This document shows, one piece after another, positions 2,842 to 54,700 of a stretch of DNA of 64,000 nucleotides (position 1 is the stretch's first letter; each line of letters opens with the position of its first letter). The position numbers and the translations under genes were made by a program. This stretch comes from an uncultured Acidobacteriota bacterium. Its GTDB lineage: Bacteria > Acidobacteriota > UBA6911. The DNA is taken from assembly GCA_963843575.1 (NCBI GenBank), contig CAWJKZ010000012.1, positions 32,001 to 96,000 on the forward strand. Direction: 5' to 3'. Below the pieces are notes generated by a model that was not told where the DNA came from, searched no databases, and worked only from the letters and a program-made list of their open reading frames with translations.

Positions 2842-3589
2842 TCACAACCGCGCCGTCCAGCTGACGATCTGATAGAAGAGGCGCGCGTACCAGCTTCCGA
2901 CTTCGATAGGGTTGGCGCCGTCGCCGCAGGCCGACACGCGCTCGTCCCCCCAATCGACGAGCCCTCCCACCCAATGGGGGGCGACGTCGCTGGCGAAGGC
3001 GGTGACGCGTCCCCGACCGTGTTCGCCGACCACCAGGAGCGGCGCCCTGATCCCCGGGAGCGAACTCGTACCCTTCGGCTCCGCGGGAGACGCGGAACTG
3101 CCGGGCCGAGAGGACCTCGACGGCGCCCGACTTCGCGGCGAGCCGGTTGTACCCGCCAATCCCCGGGCAGACCGCATCGAACGGCAGGCCGGCCACGGTG
3201 GGGTGCGGCGCCCGCAACTCGACCAGGCAGGGCTGCGGGCAGTTCACGCGGTCGTCGGCAGGTTCGAGCGCGACGGGGAGCACGTCGCGCAGGACGGTCC
3301 GACCGTAGTCCCCTCCCGCGCCCGTGAAGGACTCCCACCCGCCTATCATCAGGAGCCCCAGACCCGAGTCGATCCGCGCGGCCAAGTCCTCCAGTTGCCC
3401 GCCGGTAAACATCCTGGCCGGATAGTCGCTCAAGACCACGGCGCCGTACCCTGCGCGCTCCAGCGACGGGAACGGCTGATCGGAGGCAACATAGTCGAAC
3501 GTGACCCTGAAGTGCTGCATCACCCCCGCCAGGTAGCTCGCCGCTTCCCGCAGTGCGGTGTCGCCCACATAGAGTATTTGTTTTCTCAT
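2842..3589 (-). CDS. GATase1-like (DUF1355-type) protein, frameshifted near 3050
   Basis: AVVLSDYPA, GLLMIGGWESFTG, then PLLVVGEHGRGRVTAFASDVAPHW in a second frame; no nucleophile-elbow Cys. Confidence 0.7.
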
Positions 3590-3800: not shown

Positions 3801-5028
3801 ATGCTCAAAGGTAATGCCATCATTGGACAGTCAGGTGGGCCGACGTCGGTGATCAACGCCAGCCTCGCCGGAGTCGTCGAGGCGGCCCAGGGGTTCGCGG
3901 GCATCGGCAGCATCCTCGGGATGCGCTGGGGCATCGAGGGCTTCATGGCCGAGAACGTCGTCGACCTCTCCGGGCTTGTCGCCCGAATTCATCGCCACCC
4001 TGAAGAAGACGCCCTCGAGCGCCCTGGGCAGCAGCCGCCACAAGCTGAAAGCGCCCGACCTCCCGGTCGTGTTCGAGGTTCTCGAAGAAGTACGACATCC
4101 GCTACGTGTTCCTGATCGGCGGCAACGACACGATGGACACGATCCACCGGGTCGAGGAATACGCCCGGCAGCAACGGCTACGAGTTGATCGGCATCGGCG
4201 TGCCGAAGACGGTCGACAACGATCTCTTCGGCACCGACCACACGCCGGGGTTCCCCAGCGCCGCCCGCTATGTCGCGATCTCGGTGCAGCAGGCCGGCAT
4301 CCTGGCGCGCGACATGCAGAAGGTGGATCAGTTCGTCATCTTTCAGTCGGTGGGCCGCTCCGCGGGCTGGCTCGCGCCTCGTCGGCGCTCGCCAAGAAGG
4401 CGCCCGAGGAGCCGCCGCACATTCTCTGCCTGCCGGAGCACCCGTTCGACCGCGACCAGTTCCTGGCCCAGCGTGAAGTCCTGCCACGAGAAGTACGGCT
4501 GGGTCAGCATCGTCTGCGGCGAAGGGGTGAGCTATCCCGACGGCACCCCCGTTTCGGCCTCGCGCGTGAAAGACAAGTTCAGCAACGTCGAGTTCGGCGC
4601 CATGGGCGGCACGAGCGCCGCAATGGCGCTGCACCGCATGATCTCCGACGAGTTCGGGTTCCGCGGCGAGTTCCAGGTCACCGAATCGCTGCCCATGTGC
4701 GCGGCCGACCGCGCCTCAGCCATCGACGTCGAAGAGGCGGCCCTGTGCGGCCGGAAGGCCGTCGAACTCGCCGCCGAGGGAGTCACGGGCCTCATGGTCA
4801 CCCTTGTCCGGCAGCCGGGCCCGGGATACCGCTGCACCACCGGCACGGCCGACCTCTCGGAGGTGGCCGTCAAAGCCAAGCCGATGCCGGCCGAATACCT
4901 CACCGAGGACGGAACCTTCGTCACCCAGGCCTTCCTCGATTACGTCAGGCCGTCTGGTCGGGCCCTTGCCCGAATATGCCAACCTGCCCTTTATAAAATT
5001 CAATCCTGTCCGGAGCGCATCCAAATGA
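3801..5028 (+). CDS. pfp: PPi-dependent phosphofructokinase (multiple indels)
   Basis: GQSGGPTSVINASL, IGGNDTMD (Asp typical of PPi-type), PKTVDNDL, GRSAGWLA spread over several frames. Confidence 0.8.
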
Positions 5029-6041
5029 ACCAACAGCCAAAGTACTCGCAGTTCGCACTCGTTCGGGAGATGCTGGAGACTCCCGGTATTATCCGCAACT
5101 TCAAGACTGCGGGGGGCCGAAGAGACCGCCCGCGCCATCAAGGAAACCGGCAGACTGTTCTTCACGGGCGAAGGCTCGAGCCGCATCTTCCCCGCCAAGA
5201 ACGCCATGACCCAGGCGCTGCGGACCGGCCTCGACCTGCACCTCGCCACCGAGGGCGCCCGCCAGGCGCACGAATACCAACTCGACAAGTTCGTCGTCTT
5301 CGGCGCGTCCAACAGCGGCCAGACCAAGGAAGTCATCTCGCTGTTCGACAAGCTCGGCAAGGCGGGCCACGGAAAGCTTTTCGGGCTCACCGCCAACCAG
5401 AACACCAAGCTGGAGTCGCTGGCCAACAAGACCTTCATCCTGAGCTGCGGCAAGGAAGACGCCGTCGCCGCCACCAAGAGCGTGACCGAACAGGCGCTCT
5501 TCTACGAGTCGCTGCTCGCCCTCGTGCAGGGGCGCAGTCTCGACGCCAAGCTCCCCATGTCTGGCCGACGCCTATGAAGGCGCCCTTACCACCGCCGTCG
5601 CTCCCGCGATAACCGACGCAATCGCGCGCGCAGGCACCATCTACTTTGCCGGACGCAACGACGGCGTGGCCGAGGAACTGACGCTCAAGACCAACGAGAT
5701 CACACGCAAGAAGAGCGACTACCTCGAAGGCACCTACGCCGTGCACGGTATCGAAGAGGTCATGAATCCCGACGACGTCGTGATCCTCATCAACCCCTTC
5801 CCTGCAGAGGTGGAGAAGATCAGGGAGACCCTCGTCAAGGGGGTCGGGTTGAAGGTATTTGCGGTGGCTTCCGGGGAGACCATCTTCCCCACCGTGAAAG
5901 TCCCGGACGCCGGGGAACTCTCCGCCCTACGTCTGCCTGGCGGCCGGCTGGAACCTCCTGATCGAGGTCGGAACGGCCCTTGGGATCAACCTCGACAAGC
6001 CGGTCCGGGCGCGGAAAGTCGGCAACGAGTTTCTTGGCTAA
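5025..6041 (+). CDS. Stand-alone double-SIS protein resembling the GlmS isomerase domain (GlcN-6-P deaminase/synthase-like); indels
   Basis: REMLETP, TGEGSS, ASNSGQTKE, VAATKS, ELTLKTNE, HG, DKPVRARK; no glutaminase domain. Confidence 0.75.
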
Positions 6042-6053
6042 CAAACCCACGAG

Positions 6054-6132
6054 CCTTCGAGATCTTCGAGCCTTCAAGGTAAACTGCAAGAACTTACCTC
6101 GAAGGCTCGAAAAATAAAGGGAATCTCGAAGG
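6054..6132. repeat. Intergenic imperfect inverted repeat
   Basis: ttcgagccttcaaggtaa pairs with ttacctcgaaggctcgaa; outer ccttcgagat pairs with atctcgaagg. Confidence 0.7.
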
Positions 6133-6157
6133 ACCTTCTGATTTTTCCTGAGGTAAA

Positions 6158-7369
6158 GTGCGCGCGAGCGAGCTCACGGAACGTGGCGTCGTGATTCCTT
6201 GCGTCGACGCCGTTGAAATCGGGCCCGAAGTCGACCTGGGCCGGATCGCCGCCGGCGTCGTCATCCACGCCGGGTGCCGGCTGTCGGGCGCCGGGACCTC
6301 CATCGGCCCGGGGTGCGAGATCGGATCCGAGGCCCCCGCCACCGTCGAGAACTGCCAGCTCGGCCGGCGGGTCAAGCTGAAGGGGGGGTATTACTCGGGC
6401 TCGACCTTTCTCGACGACTCGACCTTCGGGAGCGGCGCGCACGTGCGCGCCGGCACGTTGCTGGAGGAAGGCGTCATCGCGGCGCACGCGGTCGGGATGA
6501 AGCAGACGGTCTTCCTGCCGTTTGTGGTGGCCGGAAGTCTCATCAACTTCTGCGACGCGCTCGTGGCCGGGGGCACCGGCAACAAGGACCACAGCGAGAT
6601 CGGCTCGTCGTACATCCACTTCAATTTCACCCCACACCAGGACAAGGCCACGGCTTCCCTCGTCGGCGACGTGCCGCGTGGGGTGATGCTCGGAGAACGC
6701 CCCATCTTCCTGGGCGGCCAGGGCGGACTTATCGGCCCCGTGCGCATCGAGTACGGAACGGTAATCCCCGCCGGCACGATCTGCCGCCACGACATCCTCG
6801 TCGGCAACCAGCTGTTTGCGCCCGGGGCCGCCGCGTTCCGGGAGCCGCAGAATTACCTGGGGGGTCTCTACCGCGGGATCGGGCGCATCGTCCGAAACAA
6901 CCGAATCTACATCGGCAACATCTGGGCGCTGCGCACGTGGTACTCCAGGGTCCGGGCGAGTCTCATGAATGGGGACCCCTTTTCGGCCGCCTGCTTGAAA
7001 GGCGCGCTCAACCGACTAGACGAGATCCTGGAAGAACGCGTGAAGCGCCTCCGGGAGCTGGCCGGCAAGATGCCGCGCTCACTGGAGCTCGCGCGTTCCC
7101 AAATGGGCGCCGACCTCGAGGCGGAGCCGTATGCGGGGCAGAAGAAGTTCATCGGCGCGTGGCCGCGGATCGAGGCGGGCCTCAGGGCCGCGCCGCCCGA
7201 GACCACCGGCGCCCAGCCGCGCGACATCTTCCTCGGCGAATGGGAGCGCATCGACAGGGGCGCGAGCTACCCGGAAGCCGTCAGGCGCATCAGCCCGCAG
7301 GCCCGCTCGGCAGCCACGACCTGGCTTCAGTCTATCGTCGATCTGTACAGCGGCGGCCACACAGCCTGA
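6158..7369 (+). CDS. GlmU-like left-handed beta-helix acetyltransferase without the uridyltransferase domain, plus a C-terminal helical extension
   Basis: Hexapeptide repeats; GAHVRAGT, INFCDA, HFNFTPHQDKAT, FLGGQGGLIGPVRI parallel the GlmU LbH; no LAAGxGTR motif; directly upstream of glmM. Confidence 0.75.
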   Translation: MRASELTERGVVIPCVDAVEIGPEVDLGRIAAGVVIHAGCRLSGAGTSIGPGCEIGSEAPATVENCQLGRRVKLKGGYYSGSTFLDDSTFGSGAHVRAGTLLEEGVIAAHAVGMKQTVFLPFVVAGSLINFCDALVAGGTGNKDHSEIGSSYIHFNFTPHQDKATASLVGDVPRGVMLGERPIFLGGQGGLIGPVRIEYGTVIPAGTICRHDILVGNQLFAPGAAAFREPQNYLGGLYRGIGRIVRNNRIYIGNIWALRTWYSRVRASLMNGDPFSAACLKGALNRLDEILEERVKRLRELAGKMPRSLELARSQMGADLEAEPYAGQKKFIGAWPRIEAGLRAAPPETTGAQPRDIFLGEWERIDRGASYPEAVRRISPQARSAATTWLQSIVDLYSGGHTA

Positions 7370-7418
7370 CGGCAGGCCCGAATGCCGGCGGAGACCGGGA
7401 AGGCGGCGAGGAGAGATC

Positions 7419-8789
7419 ATGGGGCGATTGTTCGGTACGGACGGTGTCCGGGGTGTGGCGAATGTCCCGCCCATGACGGCCGAGATGGTACTCGATATCG
7501 GCAGGGCTACGGCCTTCGTCTGCAAGAGACACGAAGGCCGACGCCACAACATCGTCATCGGCAAGGACACGCGCATTTCCGGATACATGCTCGAAAGCGC
7601 CCTGACCGCAGGCATCTGCTCCATGGGGGTGGACGTGCTGCTCGTCGGGCCCATGACGACCCCGGGCATCGCCTTCATCACACGGAGCATGCGCGCCGAC
7701 GCCGGGATGGTGATCTCGGCATCCCACAATCCCTACCAAGACAACGGCATCAAGATCTTCTCACGCGACGGCTACAAGCTGCCGGACTCCGTCGAAGACG
7801 AGATCGAAGCCCTGATCACCTCGGGACGGATCAAAGACATCCGCCCCACCGCGGGTGAGATCGGCAAGGCCAGGCGCATCGAAGACGCCCTGGGCCGCTA
7901 CATCGTCTTCTGCAAGGACGCCTTCCCCGAGAACCAGAGCCTCGAGGGGATGAACGTCGTCATCGACTGCGCCAATGGGGCCACGTACAAGGCCGCCCCC
8001 ATCATCTTTTCAGAACTCGGCGCGGACGTGCACGCGATCCACTGCGAACCGAACGGCATGAACATAAACGAAAATTGCGGCTCGCAGCACACCCGCAGTC
8101 TGTCGGATGCGGTACGCAGCCACGGCGCGCACGTCGGCCTCGCGTTTGACGGCGACGGGGACAGGCTGATCGCCATCGACGAGAAGGGCCAGGAAATCAC
8201 GGGCGATCACGTCCTGGCGATCTGCAGCAAGCGGTACAAGGAAAACGGACGCCTGCGGAACAACCTGGTGGTGACGACCGTCATGAGCAACTTCGGGTTT
8301 CTGGCGTTCCTCAGGGAGATGGGGATCGGGCACGCCGCCTGCAAGGTTGGGGACCGGTACGTGCTCGAGATGATGGTGGACAAGGGCGCGGTCATCGGCG
8401 GTGAACCGTCCGGACACATGATCTTCCTCGACCACCACACGACCGGCGACGGGGTCATCTCGGCGCTGCAGCTGCTCTCGGCCCTCCAGGCCTCGGGCAA
8501 ACCGCTATCGGAGCTCGCGGACATCATGCGGCTGTCGCCGCAGAAGACGATCAACGTCGAGGTAAGCCGCAAGCCGCCGTTGGAGGAACTGCCGGAACTG
8601 CAGAGCGCCATCCGGCAGGCGGAGTCGGAGTTGGACGGACGCGGCAGGGTGCTGATCCGCTACTCGGGCACCCAGTCGCTGTGCCGTGTCATGGTCGAAG
8701 GCCCGGACGACGAGGTCACGAACCGGCTCGCGGCCGAGCTCGCCGGAACCGTGCAGCGCCTCGCGGGCAGCATCGAGCCCGGCCAATAG
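7419..8789 (+). CDS. glmM: Phosphoglucosamine mutase
   Basis: LFGTDGVRG, GKDTRISGYMLE, ISASHNP, FDGDGDR, GGEPSGH, RYSGTQ. Confidence 0.95.
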   Translation: MGRLFGTDGVRGVANVPPMTAEMVLDIGRATAFVCKRHEGRRHNIVIGKDTRISGYMLESALTAGICSMGVDVLLVGPMTTPGIAFITRSMRADAGMVISASHNPYQDNGIKIFSRDGYKLPDSVEDEIEALITSGRIKDIRPTAGEIGKARRIEDALGRYIVFCKDAFPENQSLEGMNVVIDCANGATYKAAPIIFSELGADVHAIHCEPNGMNINENCGSQHTRSLSDAVRSHGAHVGLAFDGDGDRLIAIDEKGQEITGDHVLAICSKRYKENGRLRNNLVVTTVMSNFGFLAFLREMGIGHAACKVGDRYVLEMMVDKGAVIGGEPSGHMIFLDHHTTGDGVISALQLLSALQASGKPLSELADIMRLSPQKTINVEVSRKPPLEELPELQSAIRQAESELDGRGRVLIRYSGTQSLCRVMVEGPDDEVTNRLAAELAGTVQRLAGSIEPGQ

Positions 8790-8801
8790 CACGGGCTCCG
8801 G

Positions 8802-9704
8802 TCAGTAGATCTCCTCCCCCTCCTCCCGCGTGTAAAACAGGTGCAGCGATTCGCCGTCGCTCCCGTCCTGGGTATCGAGCAGCCGGGCCTCGGCCTGCGC
8901 GCGGTGATCCAGCGCCTGTCGCTCCAGCGCCTTGAGCTTCGCGCCAATCCCGTGATCGTCGACCAGCCGCTTGACCCGCTGAAACAGCCCGCGGCCGCCG
9001 CACAGGTACTGGCCCTCCCACAGGATCTTGCAGGCTACCATCGACTCGAACGTGTCGAAGCGCAGCTGGATGCACACCCTGGCTATATCCTTGACGACAT
9101 AATCGATCTCCTCCCGGTAATCCGGGTGCACGAGCAGGAAGTGCTTCCGCTTGTGGATCGCGTTGTCCAGTACGCTCAGAGCGCCGCGGTCGACTTCATC
9201 GACCGCGACTACTATGATGTCGAGGTCGGAGCCGCGCACCATCTGACCGGTGCTCCTCTCCGGCCGGGGCACCGTGTGGGACATGTCATAGGCGATGTCA
9301 CCGGCAATGATGAAGCAGACCTGCTCCATCAGGCCCCCAGGCTCCGGCAGCGTCGCCGCCACCGACTCCATCGTCTCGCGCGCGAGATTCCGCTTGTGCC
9401 GGCTGATCTCCCGGATTTCTTCCCGCAGCGTGCGGGCCTTCTCTTCCACTTCGGGGAACTGCCGCTCAATCCCCAGGACCGTGTATGTAAGAAACTCCCT
9501 CCGGATGGAAGGGGACAGCCGTGCGAAGCCCGGAACCGCCCGGTCGAGGCGCAGGAAGCGGGTCCCGGCGCCCGCAGAGCGGATTTCCGGAGATTTCCGG
9601 CAGCATTGCCAAGCCTGCAACACATCGAGCCGGGTCCGCTCCACCAGCTGCGCACCCGTTTGCGGTCCGTACTGTTGAAGCGTTGAAACAATCGTGGCTT
9701 CCAT
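8802..9704 (-). CDS. Hypothetical protein with a pol-beta-type nucleotidyltransferase-like motif
   Basis: FIIAGDIAY...RGSDLDIIVV and EEIDYVVK; HTH-like N-terminus. Confidence 0.55.
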   Translation of the reverse strand: MEATIVSTLQQYGPQTGAQLVERTRLDVLQAWQCCRKSPEIRSAGAGTRFLRLDRAVPGFARLSPSIRREFLTYTVLGIERQFPEVEEKARTLREEIREISRHKRNLARETMESVAATLPEPGGLMEQVCFIIAGDIAYDMSHTVPRPERSTGQMVRGSDLDIIVVAVDEVDRGALSVLDNAIHKRKHFLLVHPDYREEIDYVVKDIARVCIQLRFDTFESMVACKILWEGQYLCGGRGLFQRVKRLVDDHGIGAKLKALERQALDHRAQAEARLLDTQDGSDGESLHLFYTREEGEEIY

Positions 9705-9722
9705 GGCTTTCCGTGCCCGAGT

Positions 9723-9806
9723 GTGAGTCCGAGCTTCAGCCCGGACGTTGCTTGCGGTCGCTATATGCTCAGATCAAAAGACGTCCGGGCTGAAGCCCGG
9801 ACCCAC
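9723..9806. repeat. REP doublet (REPIN-like), short-spacer copy
   Basis: gtccgagcttcagcccggac ... gtccgggctgaagcccggacccac; spacer shared with the 14175 and 47094 copies. Confidence 0.85.
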
Positions 9807-9821
9807 GTGTTTTGCGTCTAA

Positions 9822-10061
9822 GGTTTCGCGCAAGAATAGGTTCACATTTAGGCGCGAGCGCCGGGCGGGCAGATGCAAGGCGCCGCGACGCAGGCGATGT
9901 GGTGACATCGTCGAGGAGCGGCAACGCCGCAGATGCCCGCCCGCCGCCGCGCCCCGGAGGGCTGACGGCTCCGTCAATAACAATCTCCTATCTTTAGTTG
10001 CCGCATGATCTGTTGGCGCGGGAGCCGTCAGCAAAATGTGAAATTATTCTTGCGCGAACCC
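9822..10061. mobile_element. 240-bp MITE, family A copy 1
   Basis: TIR GGtTTCGCGCAAGAAT...ATTCTTGCGCGAACCC; TAA on both sides; similar inverted copy at 42956-43195. Confidence 0.85.
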
Positions 10062-10134
10062 TAAGAGCATATCACGGTTCGCGGGAGCCTTTTTCTGGCG
10101 ATCGGGCGGTTCTGTTGGTATCCTCAATGCCACT

Positions 10135-12401
10135 ATGAACCATGCACCCCCAAAGCGCGCCCCATGGCGCCCGGCGGGCTTCCGCACGCCGGTGGAGCGG
10201 CTCGTCGAAGCGGTGCTCACCCATTCTTCGGCGCCCAAGTCACCTCCGCCGCGGCTGCGTGAACTCGTGAAACGTGTGCTCGACTTCGATTCGGGGGCGA
10301 CGCGGGTGGTGATACTCGGTGGGGGGACGGGGTTGTCGACGGTCGTCGGCGGCAACTCCCAGATGCCGGACTGGCCGGAGCGCCCCTTCGTCGGCCTCAA
10401 ACAGGAGTTTCCCAGGCTGGACGTGGTCGTGTGCACGACCGACGACGGCGGATCGACGGGCCGCCTGCTCCAGTGCCTTCCGATGATCGGCATCGGCGAC
10501 CTGCGCAAGTCGTGCCTGTCCCTCATAAGGCCGGACAGGCTGCGCGAAACCTACGGCACCGCGGAACACGAGGCGCAGCCGATAGTCCGCGCGGTGCAGC
10601 GGATCTTCAACCACCGTTTCCCCGACAAGGGGAGGCACAAGCGCATTCTCAGGGACCCGCTTGCGCTGCTCCCCGTTGCCCTGCGCCGCAGCTGCCCCGC
10701 ACCGCTGGCCGATACGCTGCGTGCGCTCGCGGCACCGCTGGCCGACCCGGGATCACCGTTGTCCCTCGATCCGGGAGGCCATTGCCTGGGCAACCTGATC
10801 CTGACCTCCGCGGTTTTCCGGGCCGCGGGGGGCGGACCGACCGGGCGCCCGGTCTGGCCGCCGTCGAAGCCGGACTCGACGAGATCGCAGTCCGAATCGG
10901 AGCCCCGCGTCGGCTGCTGCACCCCGCCACCGCCACCCCGGGGCAGCTCAAGTTCCGTTATGCCAATGGAGTCGAGGTCTACGGCCAAAGCAAGTCGTCG
11001 TGGGCGAACCGGCGCTGTCCCGTCGAAAGGGTGACGGCCGAGTTCACCGCACCGCCGGCGGTCAGCACTGCGGTCCTGCGCGCCATCCGCGGTGCGGACC
11101 TCATCATCTACGCCCCTGGAAGCCTGTACACGAGCATCATCCCGATCCTGCAGATCCCCCAGATCGCGGCAGCCATCCGGGAAAACCGGGCCGCGCTGAA
11201 AATCCTCGGCGCGAATTCATGGATTCAGCAGGGGGAAACCGACATTTCGCTGCGGAACGAAGGGCGGGGATTCCTGGTTTCCGAGCTGATCGAGGCCTAC
11301 GACCGCAACGTGCCAGGCGGTGCCCGCGGGCTCTTCGGCGTCGTGCTGAGCGCGAACCTGGAGCAGATCCCCAGCAACATCCTGCGCAACTATGCGCTGG
11401 AGGGCAAGCGGCCCCATCCACCTGGACCGCACCCGGGTCGAGGAGATGGGATTCCAGCCGGTCGAGGCGAGCCTGCTGTCACCCGACCGCATGCAGATGG
11501 CTCTCGTGATCCACCACGACGCGCGGAAATTCGCCCTCGCCGTCCGGACGCTCCTCTGGGCGAGGACCTACATGCCATCCGCCCGGCCGGGCAGGCCTGA
11601 GCACGGACGGCGCAGCACTGCCACGGAAACCGCGGCAGCCCGGAGGGGGCATCCCCCCCTGTGCGCCCAACTGGCCGCGGTGTGCGAAACACTCGGAGGG
11701 AAGAGTATTCAAACCCCGGTCGCTCCGGCAGGTGCTGCTGAAACTGGCCTGGGAAAACCGCGATATCCGGCCCGCGCACCTTTCGGGTTTCCGTGGCGCG
11801 CGGGTCGTTCCTGCGGCGGTATGGAACCGTGAAACGGCATGGGACAACGTCCTGGGCTACTTCGATCCGGCGGACCGCTTTCTCAAGGTTCACGAATGCC
11901 TGCTCGACAACCCAGCCAAGCTGCGCGAAGATCTGCTGGTCGCGCTCGGGGAGTCCTTGCTCGGCAGGTACATCGAAAGCCGTCGCTGGGCCGACGATCA
12001 GGCGTTGCGCAGTTGCGGCGGCCGCTGTTACGAAATCGGGTTGAGGCCTCCCGCCAAGCGGGAGTGTTTCCTGGACGATGCGCGGCTGCGCACGTACCTG
12101 GGGCTTGCGCGCATGAGGCCCGATCCGACCAGACGACAGGGTTTACCGCATCGTGCTCAACGGAAGCGAGAGGTTCCTCCCTTCGGGCATCCTGTTCGGC
12201 CTGATGTTTGCCTGGTACCTGGACAGTGCCTACGGGTCGAAGATGGAATATGAGATGTCGCTCCTGCGCTTTCCGGCCGAGACGCTGATCCCGCACCAGG
12301 TTCAGGAACGCGCACGCAAACAGGCCCTGGTGACCTTTTTCCGCGAGGTGGTTTTCGGACACCCGGAAGAGGAGCCAAGACAGACGAGGATGAATCCATG
12401 A
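10135..12401 (+). CDS. Very long YvcK/GlmR (CofD-like) family protein with a C-terminal extension (several indels)
   Basis: VVILGGGTGLS, VCTTDDGGSTG, GDLRK, HCLGNLIL, IIYAPGSLYTSIIP; consecutive fragments run to 12401. Confidence 0.75.
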
Positions 12402-52846: not shown

Positions 52847-54700
52847 ATGTGCGGAATTGTGGGCTACATCGGCTCGAAGCCTGTCGTCTCGGTCATCCTG
52901 GAGGGTCTGAGAAAGCTCGAATACCGGGGCTATGACTCCGCCGGGATCGCGGTGGTGTCGCAGGGTACGGTTGCGGTGCGCCGGTCCTCGGGCAAGCTGG
53001 TCAACCTGAGGCGGTCACTCGAGAGCTCGCCGCTTGCGGGCGACTACGGGATCGGCCACACGCGCTGGGCCACGCACGGGCGCCCCACAGAGGAAAACGC
53101 GCACCCGCACAGGGACTGCACCGGCCGGATCGTGGTCGTGCACAACGGGATCGTCGAGAACTACCTGGACCTCAAGACCTGCCTGCAGCGGCAGGGGCAC
53201 GTCTTCGCCACCGAAACCGACACCGAGGTCATCGCCCACCTCGTCGAATCCTGCCTGCCGGGAAAGGATCTCGCCTCCGCCGTTTCGGCGGCGCTGGCGC
53301 AGGTGCGCGGGAGTTTCGCCGTCGGCATCATCTCGGCCGACCACCCCAACACGATCGTCGCGGCGCGCAGCGGTCCCCCTCTGATCGTGGGACTGGGGGA
53401 AGGCGAGCTGCTGCTGGCCTCCGACGTGCCCGCGGTGCTCGAACACACCCGCAACATGTACTTCCTGCGGGACGGGGAACTGGCCGTTCTCTCGCCCAGT
53501 GGCGTCAGCGTGCAGGATTTCTCGGGTCGCCCCGTCGCCTTCACGCCTCAGGAAATCCGGTGGAGCCCCGACATGGCCGAAAAAGGGGGATACCGCCATT
53601 TCATGCTCAAGGAGATCCACGAGCAGCCACGCTCGATCCGGGACACCATATCGGGCCGCATTTCGCTCGAGTCCGGGCAGGTCTTCCTCGAAGAGGCCAA
53701 CCTGCCCGAGGACGTCATCGCCGCCATCGACCGGATCCACATCGTTGCCTGCGGGACCTCCTGGCACGCTGCCCTCGTGGGCAAGTTCCTGATCGAAGAG
53801 ATGGCCCGCATACCGGTCGAGGTCGATTACGGCTCGGAGTTCCGTTACCGGGATCCCATCCTCGACCGACGCTGCCTCGTGGTCGCCATCAGCCAATCCG
53901 GAGAAACCGCCGACACGCTCGCCGCCGTGCGGGAGGCCAGGACGAAGGAGGCGCGCGTCCTGGCAATCTGCAACGTCGTCGGGAGCATGCTCTCGCGCGA
54001 GAGCGACGGCACGCTGTATACCCGCAGCGGCCCCGAAATCGGCGTGGCGTCGACCAAGGCGTTCACCGCGCAGCTCGTGGTCCTCCTCCTGCTCGCCCTG
54101 CGGCTGGCGTTGGTGCGTCGGCGCCTTGCGCCCGAGCACGCGGCACGCCTCCTGGCCGACCTCACGCTCGTGCCCCAAGGCCTGGACCAGCTGCTGGCAA
54201 GCGCGCCGAAGTACGAGAAGATCGCCCGCGCCATCTACAAGTACAACAACTCGCTCTTCCTCGGGCGCGGGATGCAATACCCGATCGCGCTCGAAGGCGC
54301 GCTGAAGCTGAAGGAAGTATCCTACATCCACGCCGAAGGATACCCCGCGGGGGAGATGAAACACGGCCCCAACGCCCTGATCGACGGCAACCTGCCGGTC
54401 GTGGCCCTGGCCGCCCGCGACTCGCGCGACCGGAAATCCGTCCTGCGATACGAAAAGATGCTGAGCAACATCGAGGAGGTGCGCGCCCGCGAGGGGGTCG
54501 TGATCGTCGTAGGCACCGAAGGGGACGAGAGGCTGGATGGTCTCGCACAGCACGTCATCCGCATCCCCGAGGTGGCCGACTGGCTCATCCCCATCCTCCT
54601 GCCCGTCCCGCTGCAGCTGCTTGCCTACCACGTCGCCGTACTGCGCGGCTGCGACGTAGACCAACCGCGCAACCTCGCCAAGAGCGTCACGGTCGAGTGA
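52847..54700 (+). CDS. glmS: Glutamine--fructose-6-phosphate aminotransferase
   Basis: [40 protein letters not shown]. Confidence 0.97.

Follow-up and report, generated by a model that had tools for sequence, protein, structure and literature searches.

The DNA analysed here is a 64,000-nucleotide stretch (hereafter the window) from the genome of an uncultured Acidobacteriota soil bacterium, which we call G000. The window corresponds to G000:C12:32001-96000 and has a G+C content of 60–69%. Our subject is a cluster of six genes at positions 3801–12401. Its conserved core, located beside the housekeeping gene glmM, is a free-standing gene whose product is a divergent homologue of GlmU's acetyltransferase half. 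The route from fructose-6-phosphate (F6P) to UDP-N-acetylglucosamine (UDP-GlcNAc) requires amination, a mutase step, acetyl transfer, and uridylyl transfer. The supply of UDP-GlcNAc is essential for peptidoglycan, and for a long time a single bifunctional enzyme, GlmU, was believed to be responsible for it. An initial annotation of the window had proposed that GlmU is split at this cluster and that one of two neighbouring genes supplies uridylyl transfer, the only step it considered missing. The cluster, its divergent neighbour, and the canonical glmS gene of the same contig are as follows (window coordinates):

2845–3589, minus strand: GATase1-like (PF07090) gene, divergent from pfp; one frameshift, tblastn frames 3589–3050 and 3042–2845
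3801–5028, plus strand: pfp, pyrophosphate (PPi)-dependent phosphofructokinase; several single-base frameshifts, PFK Pfam fragments, start and stop codons read
5025–6041, plus strand: two-SIS-domain gene of the NagB-II/GlmD/GlmS-C type (SIS gene); ATG overlaps the pfp stop codon, three frames
6158–7369, plus strand: LbH-only gene (LbH gene), 403 amino acids (aa); intact, with GlmU-C-like residues 1–216 and a helical C-terminal domain of ~180 aa
7419–8789, plus strand: glmM, phosphoglucosamine mutase; intact, four PGM/PMM domains
8802–9704, minus strand: NTase300, predicted winged-helix (wHTH) plus Pol-beta-type nucleotidyltransferase, 300 aa; intact, convergent with glmM and divergent from yvcK
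10135–12401, plus strand: long yvcK, YvcK/GlmR-like gene encoding a CofD fold and, C-terminally, a zincin-like domain; four or more frameshifts, CofD Pfam fragments
52850–54697, plus strand: canonical glmS, given for context (G000:C12:84850-86697)

Because the high G+C content crowds the open reading frame lists with spurious frames, genes were mapped by tblastn, the queries being intact orthologues at locus L043 of a related genome, G011, and gene ends were read directly. Family scores for the frameshifted genes were taken on the intact G011 orthologues. The curated cut-offs were 366.85 bits for TIGR01173, 447.55 for TIGR01455, 418.05 for TIGR01135, 273 for PRK14072, and 196 for TIGR01826; the Pfam cut-offs were 30 bits for PF01933 and 21 bits for PF01909. 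All six genes lie where the initial annotation had placed them, and its limits, 3801 and 12401, coincide exactly with the pfp start codon and the long yvcK stop codon. The co-orientation it described for pfp, SIS, LbH, and glmM holds, all four being on the plus strand, and the canonical glmS that it had located near 52847 was recovered with 821 bits on TIGR01135 against a cut-off of 418.05. No Rfam family matched anywhere in the window at its gathering threshold. Between 3400 and 12800, we detected one promoter-like site (1.1 expected) and 11 terminator-like sites (6.6 expected), which yielded nothing usable.

The glmM gene of the cluster scores 602.6 bits on TIGR01455 against 447.55 (587 bits for the G011 orthologue) and is the only copy in G000 above the cut-off, six paralogues reaching at most 223 bits; the cluster thus holds a housekeeping gene. 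A search of the genome for a full glmU, which had been suggested as a check on the split-enzyme proposal, found a canonical bifunctional gene on another contig, at G000:C14:622395-623747. This gene forms a 486-aa open frame without stops, retains the His motif 'AAHLSY', and scores 550.3 bits on TIGR01173 against 366.85 over model positions 2–450 of 452. Since GlmU is encoded here, no pathway step is missing in the window's genome, and neither a split GlmU nor a missing uridylyl transfer can be upheld for it. Nor are the two neighbouring genes the only candidates for that step, as had been thought: G000 has 15 matches to PF00483 and 18 to PF12804, and it holds a 356-aa frame comparable to the 346-aa NTP_transferase-plus-LbH proteins of genus g2 described below. 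Pfam scans gave no match to PF00483, PF12804, or PF01704 in either NTase300 or long YvcK.

The relationship of the LbH protein to GlmU is clear at the profile level. When a profile of nine family members was compared with one of eleven canonical GlmUs, hhalign gave a probability of 98% (E 2.3e-13, 192 columns), aligning LbH residues 1–216 with GlmU 237–429, and E-values against GlmU chains in the PDB ranged from 8e-6 to 1e-3. TIGR01173 matches the window protein over model positions 240–430 only, with 42.3 bits, and the G011 orthologue over positions 239–431, with 44.6 bits; the 366.85-bit cut-off for bifunctional GlmU is not reached. Pfam scans detected no PF00483 or PF12804 domain in the LbH protein, which has no N-terminal uridylyltransferase domain. 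In the hhalign alignment, R97, K115, and N156 are kept at the positions of Arg333, Lys351, and Asn377 (E. coli numbering), which we take to be substrate-binding residues of GlmU. The family also carries insertions of 6 and 10 residues and the helical C-terminal domain of ~180 aa. It is very large: 582 of 598 pattern matches were confirmed in a collection that represents each species by a single genome, so that the family has at least 582 members there. Among 8,000 candidates scored, no fewer than 7,708 protein clusters matched at E up to 1e-20. Public names for its members are inconsistent ('hypothetical protein', 'UDP-N-acetylglucosamine pyrophosphorylase', 'bifunctional ... GlmU'). As a lead only, the ESM Atlas places the C-terminal domain (window 6830–7369, residues 225–403) nearest to DUF4954/DUF6819 clusters from Bacteroidota and Spirochaetota at 0.84–0.87, below the 0.9 level; neither DUF was listed in a Pfam scan of nine LbH-family members at E up to 5.

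We surveyed 41 genomes (G000 and 40 relatives), of which 12, from five genera, carry the LbH gene. GlmU above cut-off occurs in 26 of the 41 and was not found in the seven g2 genomes (93–99% complete) or in G030, that is, in eight of the 12 LbH-bearing relatives; the LbH gene and canonical GlmU occur together in G000, G001, G007, and G011. PF01704, the UAP1/NagU type, was detected in 7 of the 41 genomes and in none of genera g1 and g2. It was absent from all 14 control genomes, and the positive control, five LbH-bearing genomes of other lineages, gave matches in all five. The best GlmU-like proteins of g2 are the 346-aa NTP_transferase-plus-LbH proteins, which score 280–286 bits on a mannose-1-phosphate guanylyltransferase model (cut-off 440) and 175–181 bits on archaeal GlmU (cut-off 292). 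murA was found in all five GlmU-less LbH-bearing relatives searched (four g2 genomes and G030), and glmS above cut-off in three of these five. G030, which has the LbH gene and no GlmS above cut-off, contains a GlmS-isomerase-like stretch (139.6 bits) within a 1218-aa open frame at G030:C205:16245-17360. Long yvcK (more than 800 bits; in pieces in G000 and G001) is present in 11 of the 12 LbH-bearing relatives and in none of the 29 others, so the suggested co-occurrence of the LbH gene with long YvcK is borne out. The corresponding counts for NTase300 are 9 of 12 and 0 of 29, with six of the seven g2 genomes among its carriers.

No GlmU above cut-off was found in 22 LbH-bearing genomes drawn from other lineages, and the LbH protein is therefore their only GlmU-C-like candidate. 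An N-terminal-only GlmU match (239–318 bits) occurs in 9 of the 22 and PF01704 in 16. Four carry long yvcK (G042, G044, G047, and G048), and two of these, G047 and G048, are the only genomes of the 22 with neither a GlmU-N match nor PF01704. Together with the g2 genomes (G002, G012, G015, G018, G020, G022, and G024), they make nine LbH genomes lacking both types of match, all of which have long yvcK. Judging from these family matches, the LbH family is across bacteria the predicted acetyltransferase half of a genuinely split GlmU, the uridylyl half usually being a GlmU N-domain protein or a UAP1/NagU-type protein.

Gene neighbourhoods tie the family to glmM. In the 80 best genome loci from the one-genome-per-species collection, the labels of which span several phyla, the LbH gene lies beside glmM in 56; NTase300 is found within 8 kb in 10 and long yvcK in 2, and none of the 80 has pfp, SIS, or the GATase1-like gene nearby. 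For NTase300, we counted neighbours in the 80 best of 539 confirmed metagenome loci. The commonest is glmM (35 loci), with LbH in 19 and long yvcK in 13; the 27 loci flanked by 3 kb or more of sequence on each side gave 16, 9, and 5, respectively. Eight loci (L217, L218, L231–L235, L241) have glmM immediately ahead of NTase300 in the same orientation and lack an LbH gene within 7 kb. The entire order seen in the window, GATase1-like gene through NTase300, is found again on contig L164, and L108 (labelled Planctomycetota) has long yvcK, LbH, glmM, and NTase300 in succession on one strand. In G007, a divergent GATase1-like gene is followed by pfp, SIS, and long yvcK, contiguous and co-directional, while glmM and LbH lie on another contig. 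Conserved linkage had been set beforehand as a test, and the LbH–glmM, NTase300–glmM, and pfp–SIS–long yvcK associations do recur.

In L044 (G024) and L046 (G042), a PF01182 NagB-type gene (L044:5036-6082, minus strand; L046:10641-11669, plus strand; 342–349 aa, 45–47 bits) lies between glmM and NTase300; the clusters of g1 and g11 include a SIS gene instead. By its family assignment and position, the PF01182 gene is a predicted non-orthologous stand-in for the SIS gene, in the slot expected for a glucosamine-6-phosphate (GlcN-6-P) isomerase/deaminase. A Sir2-family deacetylase gene (173–181 bits) lies immediately upstream of LbH at L046:7173-7928 and L050:7172-7915, both on the plus strand.

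The upstream genes of the cluster were assigned with varying precision. The G011 orthologue of pfp scores 412 bits on PRK14072 (NF010675), above the PPi-phosphofructokinase cut-off of 273, and the frameshifted window copy is 58% identical to it by tblastn. The SIS protein (~335 aa) has two SIS stretches, with 41.8 bits on PF01380, and its nearest solved relative is the NagB-II deaminase (8eol/3hba, E 1.6e-7). Its description as a GlmS isomerase domain alone is imprecise: models for NagB-II, GlmD, and GlmS score about equally at 35–38 bits, far under their cut-offs. Two further stand-alone GlmS-isomerase-like frames in G000, at C27:104144-105118 (368 aa) and C13:454885-455898 (357 aa), reach 122 and 118 bits over model positions 252–604 and resemble GlmS more closely than the cluster's SIS gene does. 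The G011 orthologue of the GATase1-like gene scores 94.1 bits on PF07090, and the divergent arrangement with pfp recurs in G011, G007, and metagenome contig L164. Four lineages retain this divergent placement of the gene (window 2845–3589, minus strand; L043:9807-10562; L248:1271-2023; L164:6474-7214). By eye, the G011 sequence has 'GGWES' without a Cys at the usual nucleophile-elbow position, so that a glutaminase role feeding the SIS enzyme looks unlikely.

As deposited, pfp, SIS, yvcK, and the GATase1-like gene require frame changes, whereas LbH, glmM, and NTase300 are intact. With the G011 orthologues as tblastn queries, SIS falls into three frames and yvcK into five pieces in three frames. 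Compared with the same-genus genome G001, single-base indels occur in pfp at about 3975, 4083, 4178, 4377, 4472, and 4953 and in SIS at about 5105, 5560, and 5923, with at least 11 indel sites in yvcK; most of these breaks are extra bases in the window. The G001 copy of long yvcK is itself broken mid-gene. Over a 60.4 kb alignment of the window with G001 (G001:C11), we counted 172 uncompensated indels of a length not divisible by three, in patches throughout, a number that takes in intergenic DNA and errors of either genome. The patches include 31 indels in 47.2–54.7 kb and 33 in 27.3–37.6 kb, and gene calls anywhere in the window need checking against relatives. Contigs from two independent public runs (X2 and X3) match 5698–6026 near-perfectly and are one base shorter at 5922, where SIS is frameshifted; these contigs fall in 13–18 of 30 bins, the runs hold 0.05–0.09 of the sampled words, and 5922 is the one frameshift site covered. 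Given that frameshift-type indels are spread across the window and that the base at 5922 is absent from two runs, the frameshifts in pfp, SIS, and yvcK are probably long-read assembly errors. Decay of the cluster into pseudogenes was set below this explanation, since such indels occur across the whole window.

Firmicute GlmR/YvcK is a UDP-GlcNAc-binding regulator of GlmS, and uridylyltransferase activity has been reported for it in vitro. The intact 752-aa long YvcK of G011 scores 151.8 bits on PF01933 over residues 65–452, above the cut-off, and 110.7 bits on TIGR01826, below the 196 required. Its structural model has a mean pLDDT of 69.7, and the N-terminal domain matches solved YvcK structures (2hzb, 2o2z, 2ppv) with Foldseek E-values of 2e-13 to 4e-12 (2.1e-13 for 2hzb). 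The C-terminal ~240 aa are common to a 718-aa YvcK cluster that is commonest in Kiritimatiellota (TM 0.91). Atlas structure rows give this domain a weak likeness to small zincin-like peptidase folds (TM 0.43–0.56); in a Foldseek search with the whole model it stayed unresolved, the only zincin row being anthrax lethal factor at E 0.15. It has no conserved HExxH, and GE(S/A)xLG is conserved instead. In the accessible part of the Listeria GlmR paper, D40, D41, and N198 form the predicted catalytic site, joint mutation of which cut activity ~100-fold, and Y265 and R301 of B. subtilis GlmR are given as the UDP-GlcNAc site. By our own mapping of the Listeria numbering onto motifs via the B. halodurans chain, the Asp pair is invariant in 12 long YvcKs as D110/D111, while all of them have Ile or Leu in place of N198 (the Asn of the 'PN' motif). 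The Tyr equivalent to Y265 is kept, and the R301 equivalent is His or Gln.

Short forms of yvcK show a different association. Among 28 LbH-less relatives (G034 was left out), short yvcK lies directly beside canonical glmU in 15: G003, G004, G005, G006, G008, G009, G010, G013, G017, G019, G021, G023, G027, G028, and G033. The G005 protein, the only one scanned from this set, scores 353 bits on TIGR01826 and has both the DDGG and 'PN' motifs. This arrangement fits a role of YvcK in UDP-GlcNAc metabolism outside Firmicutes. The short YvcK of G001 (L147:374-1477, minus strand; TIGR01826, 306 bits) lacks the DDGG motif and the 'PN' Asn, and a second CofD-family locus in G000 (C21:193058-193679), in pieces, may be cofD.

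The AlphaFold model of NTase300 (pLDDT 88, pTM 0.83) predicts a winged helix at residues 1–80, with Z of ~7.5 to MarR-like and Z-alpha domains, and a Pol-beta-type nucleotidyltransferase at residues ~87–300. VIA matches were to DrrA (Z 10.5; root-mean-square deviation 4.8, 184 residues aligned), ANT(4') (Z 9.8), GlnE (Z 8.6), and ANT(3'')(9) (Z 8.2); Foldseek E-values were weak, at 4e-3 or worse. The motif G158-S159-D160-L-D162 is invariant in 14 of 14 sequences, as is D201, and with 19.6 bits on PF01909 the G011 orthologue narrowly misses the cut-off of 21. The modelled fold is that of enzymes that place a nucleoside monophosphate on protein or aminoglycoside hydroxyls, not that of GlmU-N, RmlA, or UAP1.

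From these observations, the locus is probably, though by no means certainly, an accessory amino-sugar (UDP-GlcNAc precursor) module rather than the completion of a missing GlmU. PPi-dependent phosphofructokinase would set the F6P pool, and the SIS enzyme would most likely interconvert F6P and GlcN-6-P by the chemistry that NagB-II, GlmD, and the GlmS isomerase domain share. The glucosamine-1-phosphate (GlcN-1-P) expected from GlmM would most likely be N-acetylated by the LbH protein to N-acetylglucosamine-1-phosphate (GlcNAc-1-P), and the canonical GlmU encoded elsewhere is predicted to be able to carry out uridylyl transfer. Because GlmU is encoded in G000, the module would be redundant with or parallel to the GlmU acetyltransferase. 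Long YvcK would most likely be a GlmR-type checkpoint or accessory protein at the F6P/GlcN-6-P branch point. Its gene follows pfp–SIS in G007, and short yvcK lies beside glmU in relatives, which fits a pathway partner better than a fixed GlmU half. NTase300 would most likely be a glmM-linked regulator that nucleotidylylates a protein or a small molecule.

Several points weigh against this module. The residues that are presumably catalytic in GlmU (His363, Glu349, and Ser405, E. coli numbering) are replaced in the hhalign alignment by an invariant Ser127, by Gly113, and by Gly187, respectively, so that acetyltransferase activity of the LbH protein would require a rebuilt active site. An alternative HMM alignment puts the GlmU His opposite Phe131, the alignment being uncertain by a few residues, and the invariant His145, Glu147, and His154 in or beside the first insertion could serve in such a site. 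LbH, SIS, long YvcK (TIGR01826), and NTase300 all score below the cut-offs of their family models. The gene set is compatible with flux in either direction, synthesis or salvage/catabolism, and the module does not account for the retention of the LbH gene alongside a full GlmU. The regulatory roles suggested for long YvcK and NTase300 come from fold and neighbourhood. Finally, relatives are not independent samples, the 12 LbH-bearing ones representing five genera.

An alternative is that long YvcK serves as the GlcNAc-1-P uridylyltransferase partner of the LbH acetyltransferase, acting in parallel to GlmU in the window's organism and as the main enzyme where GlmU-N and NagU are lacking. We regard this as unlikely. 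The invariance of D110/D111 in the 12 long YvcKs, equivalent to the mutated D40/D41, speaks for it, and the Ile or Leu at the N198 position in the same 12 proteins speaks against it. Long YvcK is carried by all nine LbH genomes without a GlmU-N-type or PF01704 match and by 11 of the 12 LbH-bearing relatives against none of the 29 others, and it heads the co-directional yvcK–LbH–glmM–NTase300 row of L108. However, the nine genomes represent perhaps three independent lineages, 18 of the 22 LbH-bearing genomes of other lineages lack long YvcK, and the protein coexists with PF01704 in G042 and G044, the latter also having a GlmU-N-type match. G030 has the LbH gene and murA with no GlmU, no full PF01704 enzyme, and no long YvcK, so that at least this genome has to encode some other uridylyltransferase. 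Long yvcK of G007 comes after pfp–SIS and not LbH, and g2 also holds ordinary NTP_transferase proteins, such as the 346-aa ManC/archaeal-GlmU-like protein, which stays under both of its cut-offs. In addition, the available text of a preprint reports that native GlmR cannot replace NagU and the GlmU uridylyltransferase in S. aureus (bioRxiv 10.64898/2026.06.23.733835). We hold to be equally doubtful the broader proposal that in Acidobacteriota-like lineages with murA and the LbH gene but neither a GlmU N-domain nor a UAP1/NagU enzyme (g2, G047, and G048) long YvcK, a CofD fold with a degenerate zincin-like domain, is the physiological GlcNAc-1-P uridylyltransferase, so that GlmU has been replaced by two unrelated proteins and the window's organism is an intermediate with both systems.

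Less probable still is that the LbH protein is not a GlcN-1-P N-acetyltransferase at all and instead transfers another acyl group, acts on another amino-sugar phosphate for a specialised glycan, or is a non-catalytic partner or regulator of GlmM. Such a role would explain its coexistence with full GlmU in the window's genome, as in G001, G007, and G011, and it accords with the replaced His, Glu, and Ser positions, the two family-specific insertions, the extra helical domain, and the inconsistent public names. Some LbH N-acetyltransferases, however, work without a catalytic His. Moreover, no other GlmU-C-type acetyltransferase was found in 8 of the 12 LbH-bearing relatives or in any of the 22 other genomes. 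Given that murA is present in all five GlmU-less genomes searched, something must acetylate GlcN-1-P there, and the LbH protein is the only homologue seen.

That NTase300, the second candidate of the initial annotation, is the GlcNAc-1-P uridylyltransferase is very improbable: its glmM linkage (35 of 80 metagenome loci; 10 of 80 LbH loci), its presence in six of seven g2 genomes and beside LbH–glmM in the G047 and G048 loci, the invariant G-S-D-x-D motif, and the nucleotidylylation of amino-sugars by ANT-type relatives (as named in structure entry titles) are set against a predicted Pol-beta fold with a winged helix in place of the Rossmann-like sugar-1-phosphate nucleotidylyltransferase fold, the lack of any PF00483 or PF12804 match, the failure to find the gene in G018 (97% complete, no GlmU) or G007, its occurrence beside glmM without LbH within 7 kb in eight loci, and its presence alongside PF01704 (G042) or a GlmU-N-type match (G051).

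The window's organism thus has the full set of usual pathway genes, and sequencing artefacts probably account for the broken ones. As a reading of this genome the initial interpretation fails; it has partial merit as a guide to related genomes, g2 in particular. Recent work indicates that GlmU is often split or replaced. To this picture the locus adds a very large, inconsistently named stand-alone LbH family tied to glmM, a long form of YvcK/GlmR and a wHTH-nucleotidyltransferase that travel with amino-sugar genes, and natural genomes in which no known uridylyltransferase was found. Such genomes offer a direct test ground for the contested view that proteins of the GlmR type serve as uridylyltransferases in living cells. 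In the literature searched, which lay outside subscription journals and supplements, we found no account of the tie between the LbH family and glmM, of a glmM-linked wHTH-nucleotidyltransferase, of genomes lacking every known uridylyltransferase, of a stand-alone GlmU acetyltransferase in Acidobacteria, or of the yvcK–glmU gene pair; among the papers listed, titles and the starts of abstracts gave no record of the long YvcK form in Planctomycetes or Acidobacteria.

Four proteins of the cluster can be set beside known systems. The NTase300 model shares its fold (Z 8.2–10.5) and the G-S...D-x-D motif with the GlnE, DrrA, ANT, and MNT Pol-beta enzymes and differs in having a winged helix at its N terminus and, ahead of the DxD strand, a loop of 24 residues. 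The SIS protein resembles NagB-II, archaeal GlmD, and the GlmS isomerase domain in having two SIS domains in ~335 aa, yet it scores only 35–38 bits on their models against cut-offs of 381–580. Long YvcK shares with Firmicute GlmR/YvcK the CofD/YvcK fold of its N-terminal domain, the GGGTG and DDGG motifs, the Y265-equivalent Tyr, and linkage to genes of the F6P/GlcN-6-P branch. It is ~750 aa long against ~320 aa, with insertions in the N-terminal domain and the ~240-aa zincin-like C-terminal domain, and it differs at the N198 (Ile/Leu) and R301 (His/Gln) equivalents.

The LbH protein shares with the C-terminal domain of GlmU a homologous helix over GlmU residues 237–429, linkage to glmM, and the aligned Arg, Lys, and Asn. 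It differs from GlmU in lacking the uridylyltransferase domain (42–45 bits against 366.85), in its replaced catalytic positions, in its insertions and helical domain, and in being accompanied by a true GlmU encoded elsewhere in the same genome. A split GlmU is in itself already in print. Renzi et al. (2015; PMC4358021) describe, in the available part of the paper, a monofunctional uridylyltransferase consisting of the GlmU N-domain, GlmUCc, in Capnocytophaga (Bacteroidetes), and the legend of their Figure S4 refers to genera with the LbH_C domain only. The accessible text of Fong et al. (2026; bioRxiv 10.64898/2026.06.23.733835) describes NagU, a UAP1-like enzyme, and C-terminal-only GlmU genes of the PVC group paired with it; those proteins may belong to the LbH family. 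As far as these sources extend, the likeness to our systems lies in having acetyltransferase and uridylyltransferase on separate proteins, 16 of the 22 genomes of other lineages having PF01704 and 9 of the 22 a GlmU N-half. The window's genome differs from such systems in also having a full GlmU, and g2, G047, and G048 differ in showing neither NagU nor a GlmU N-half.

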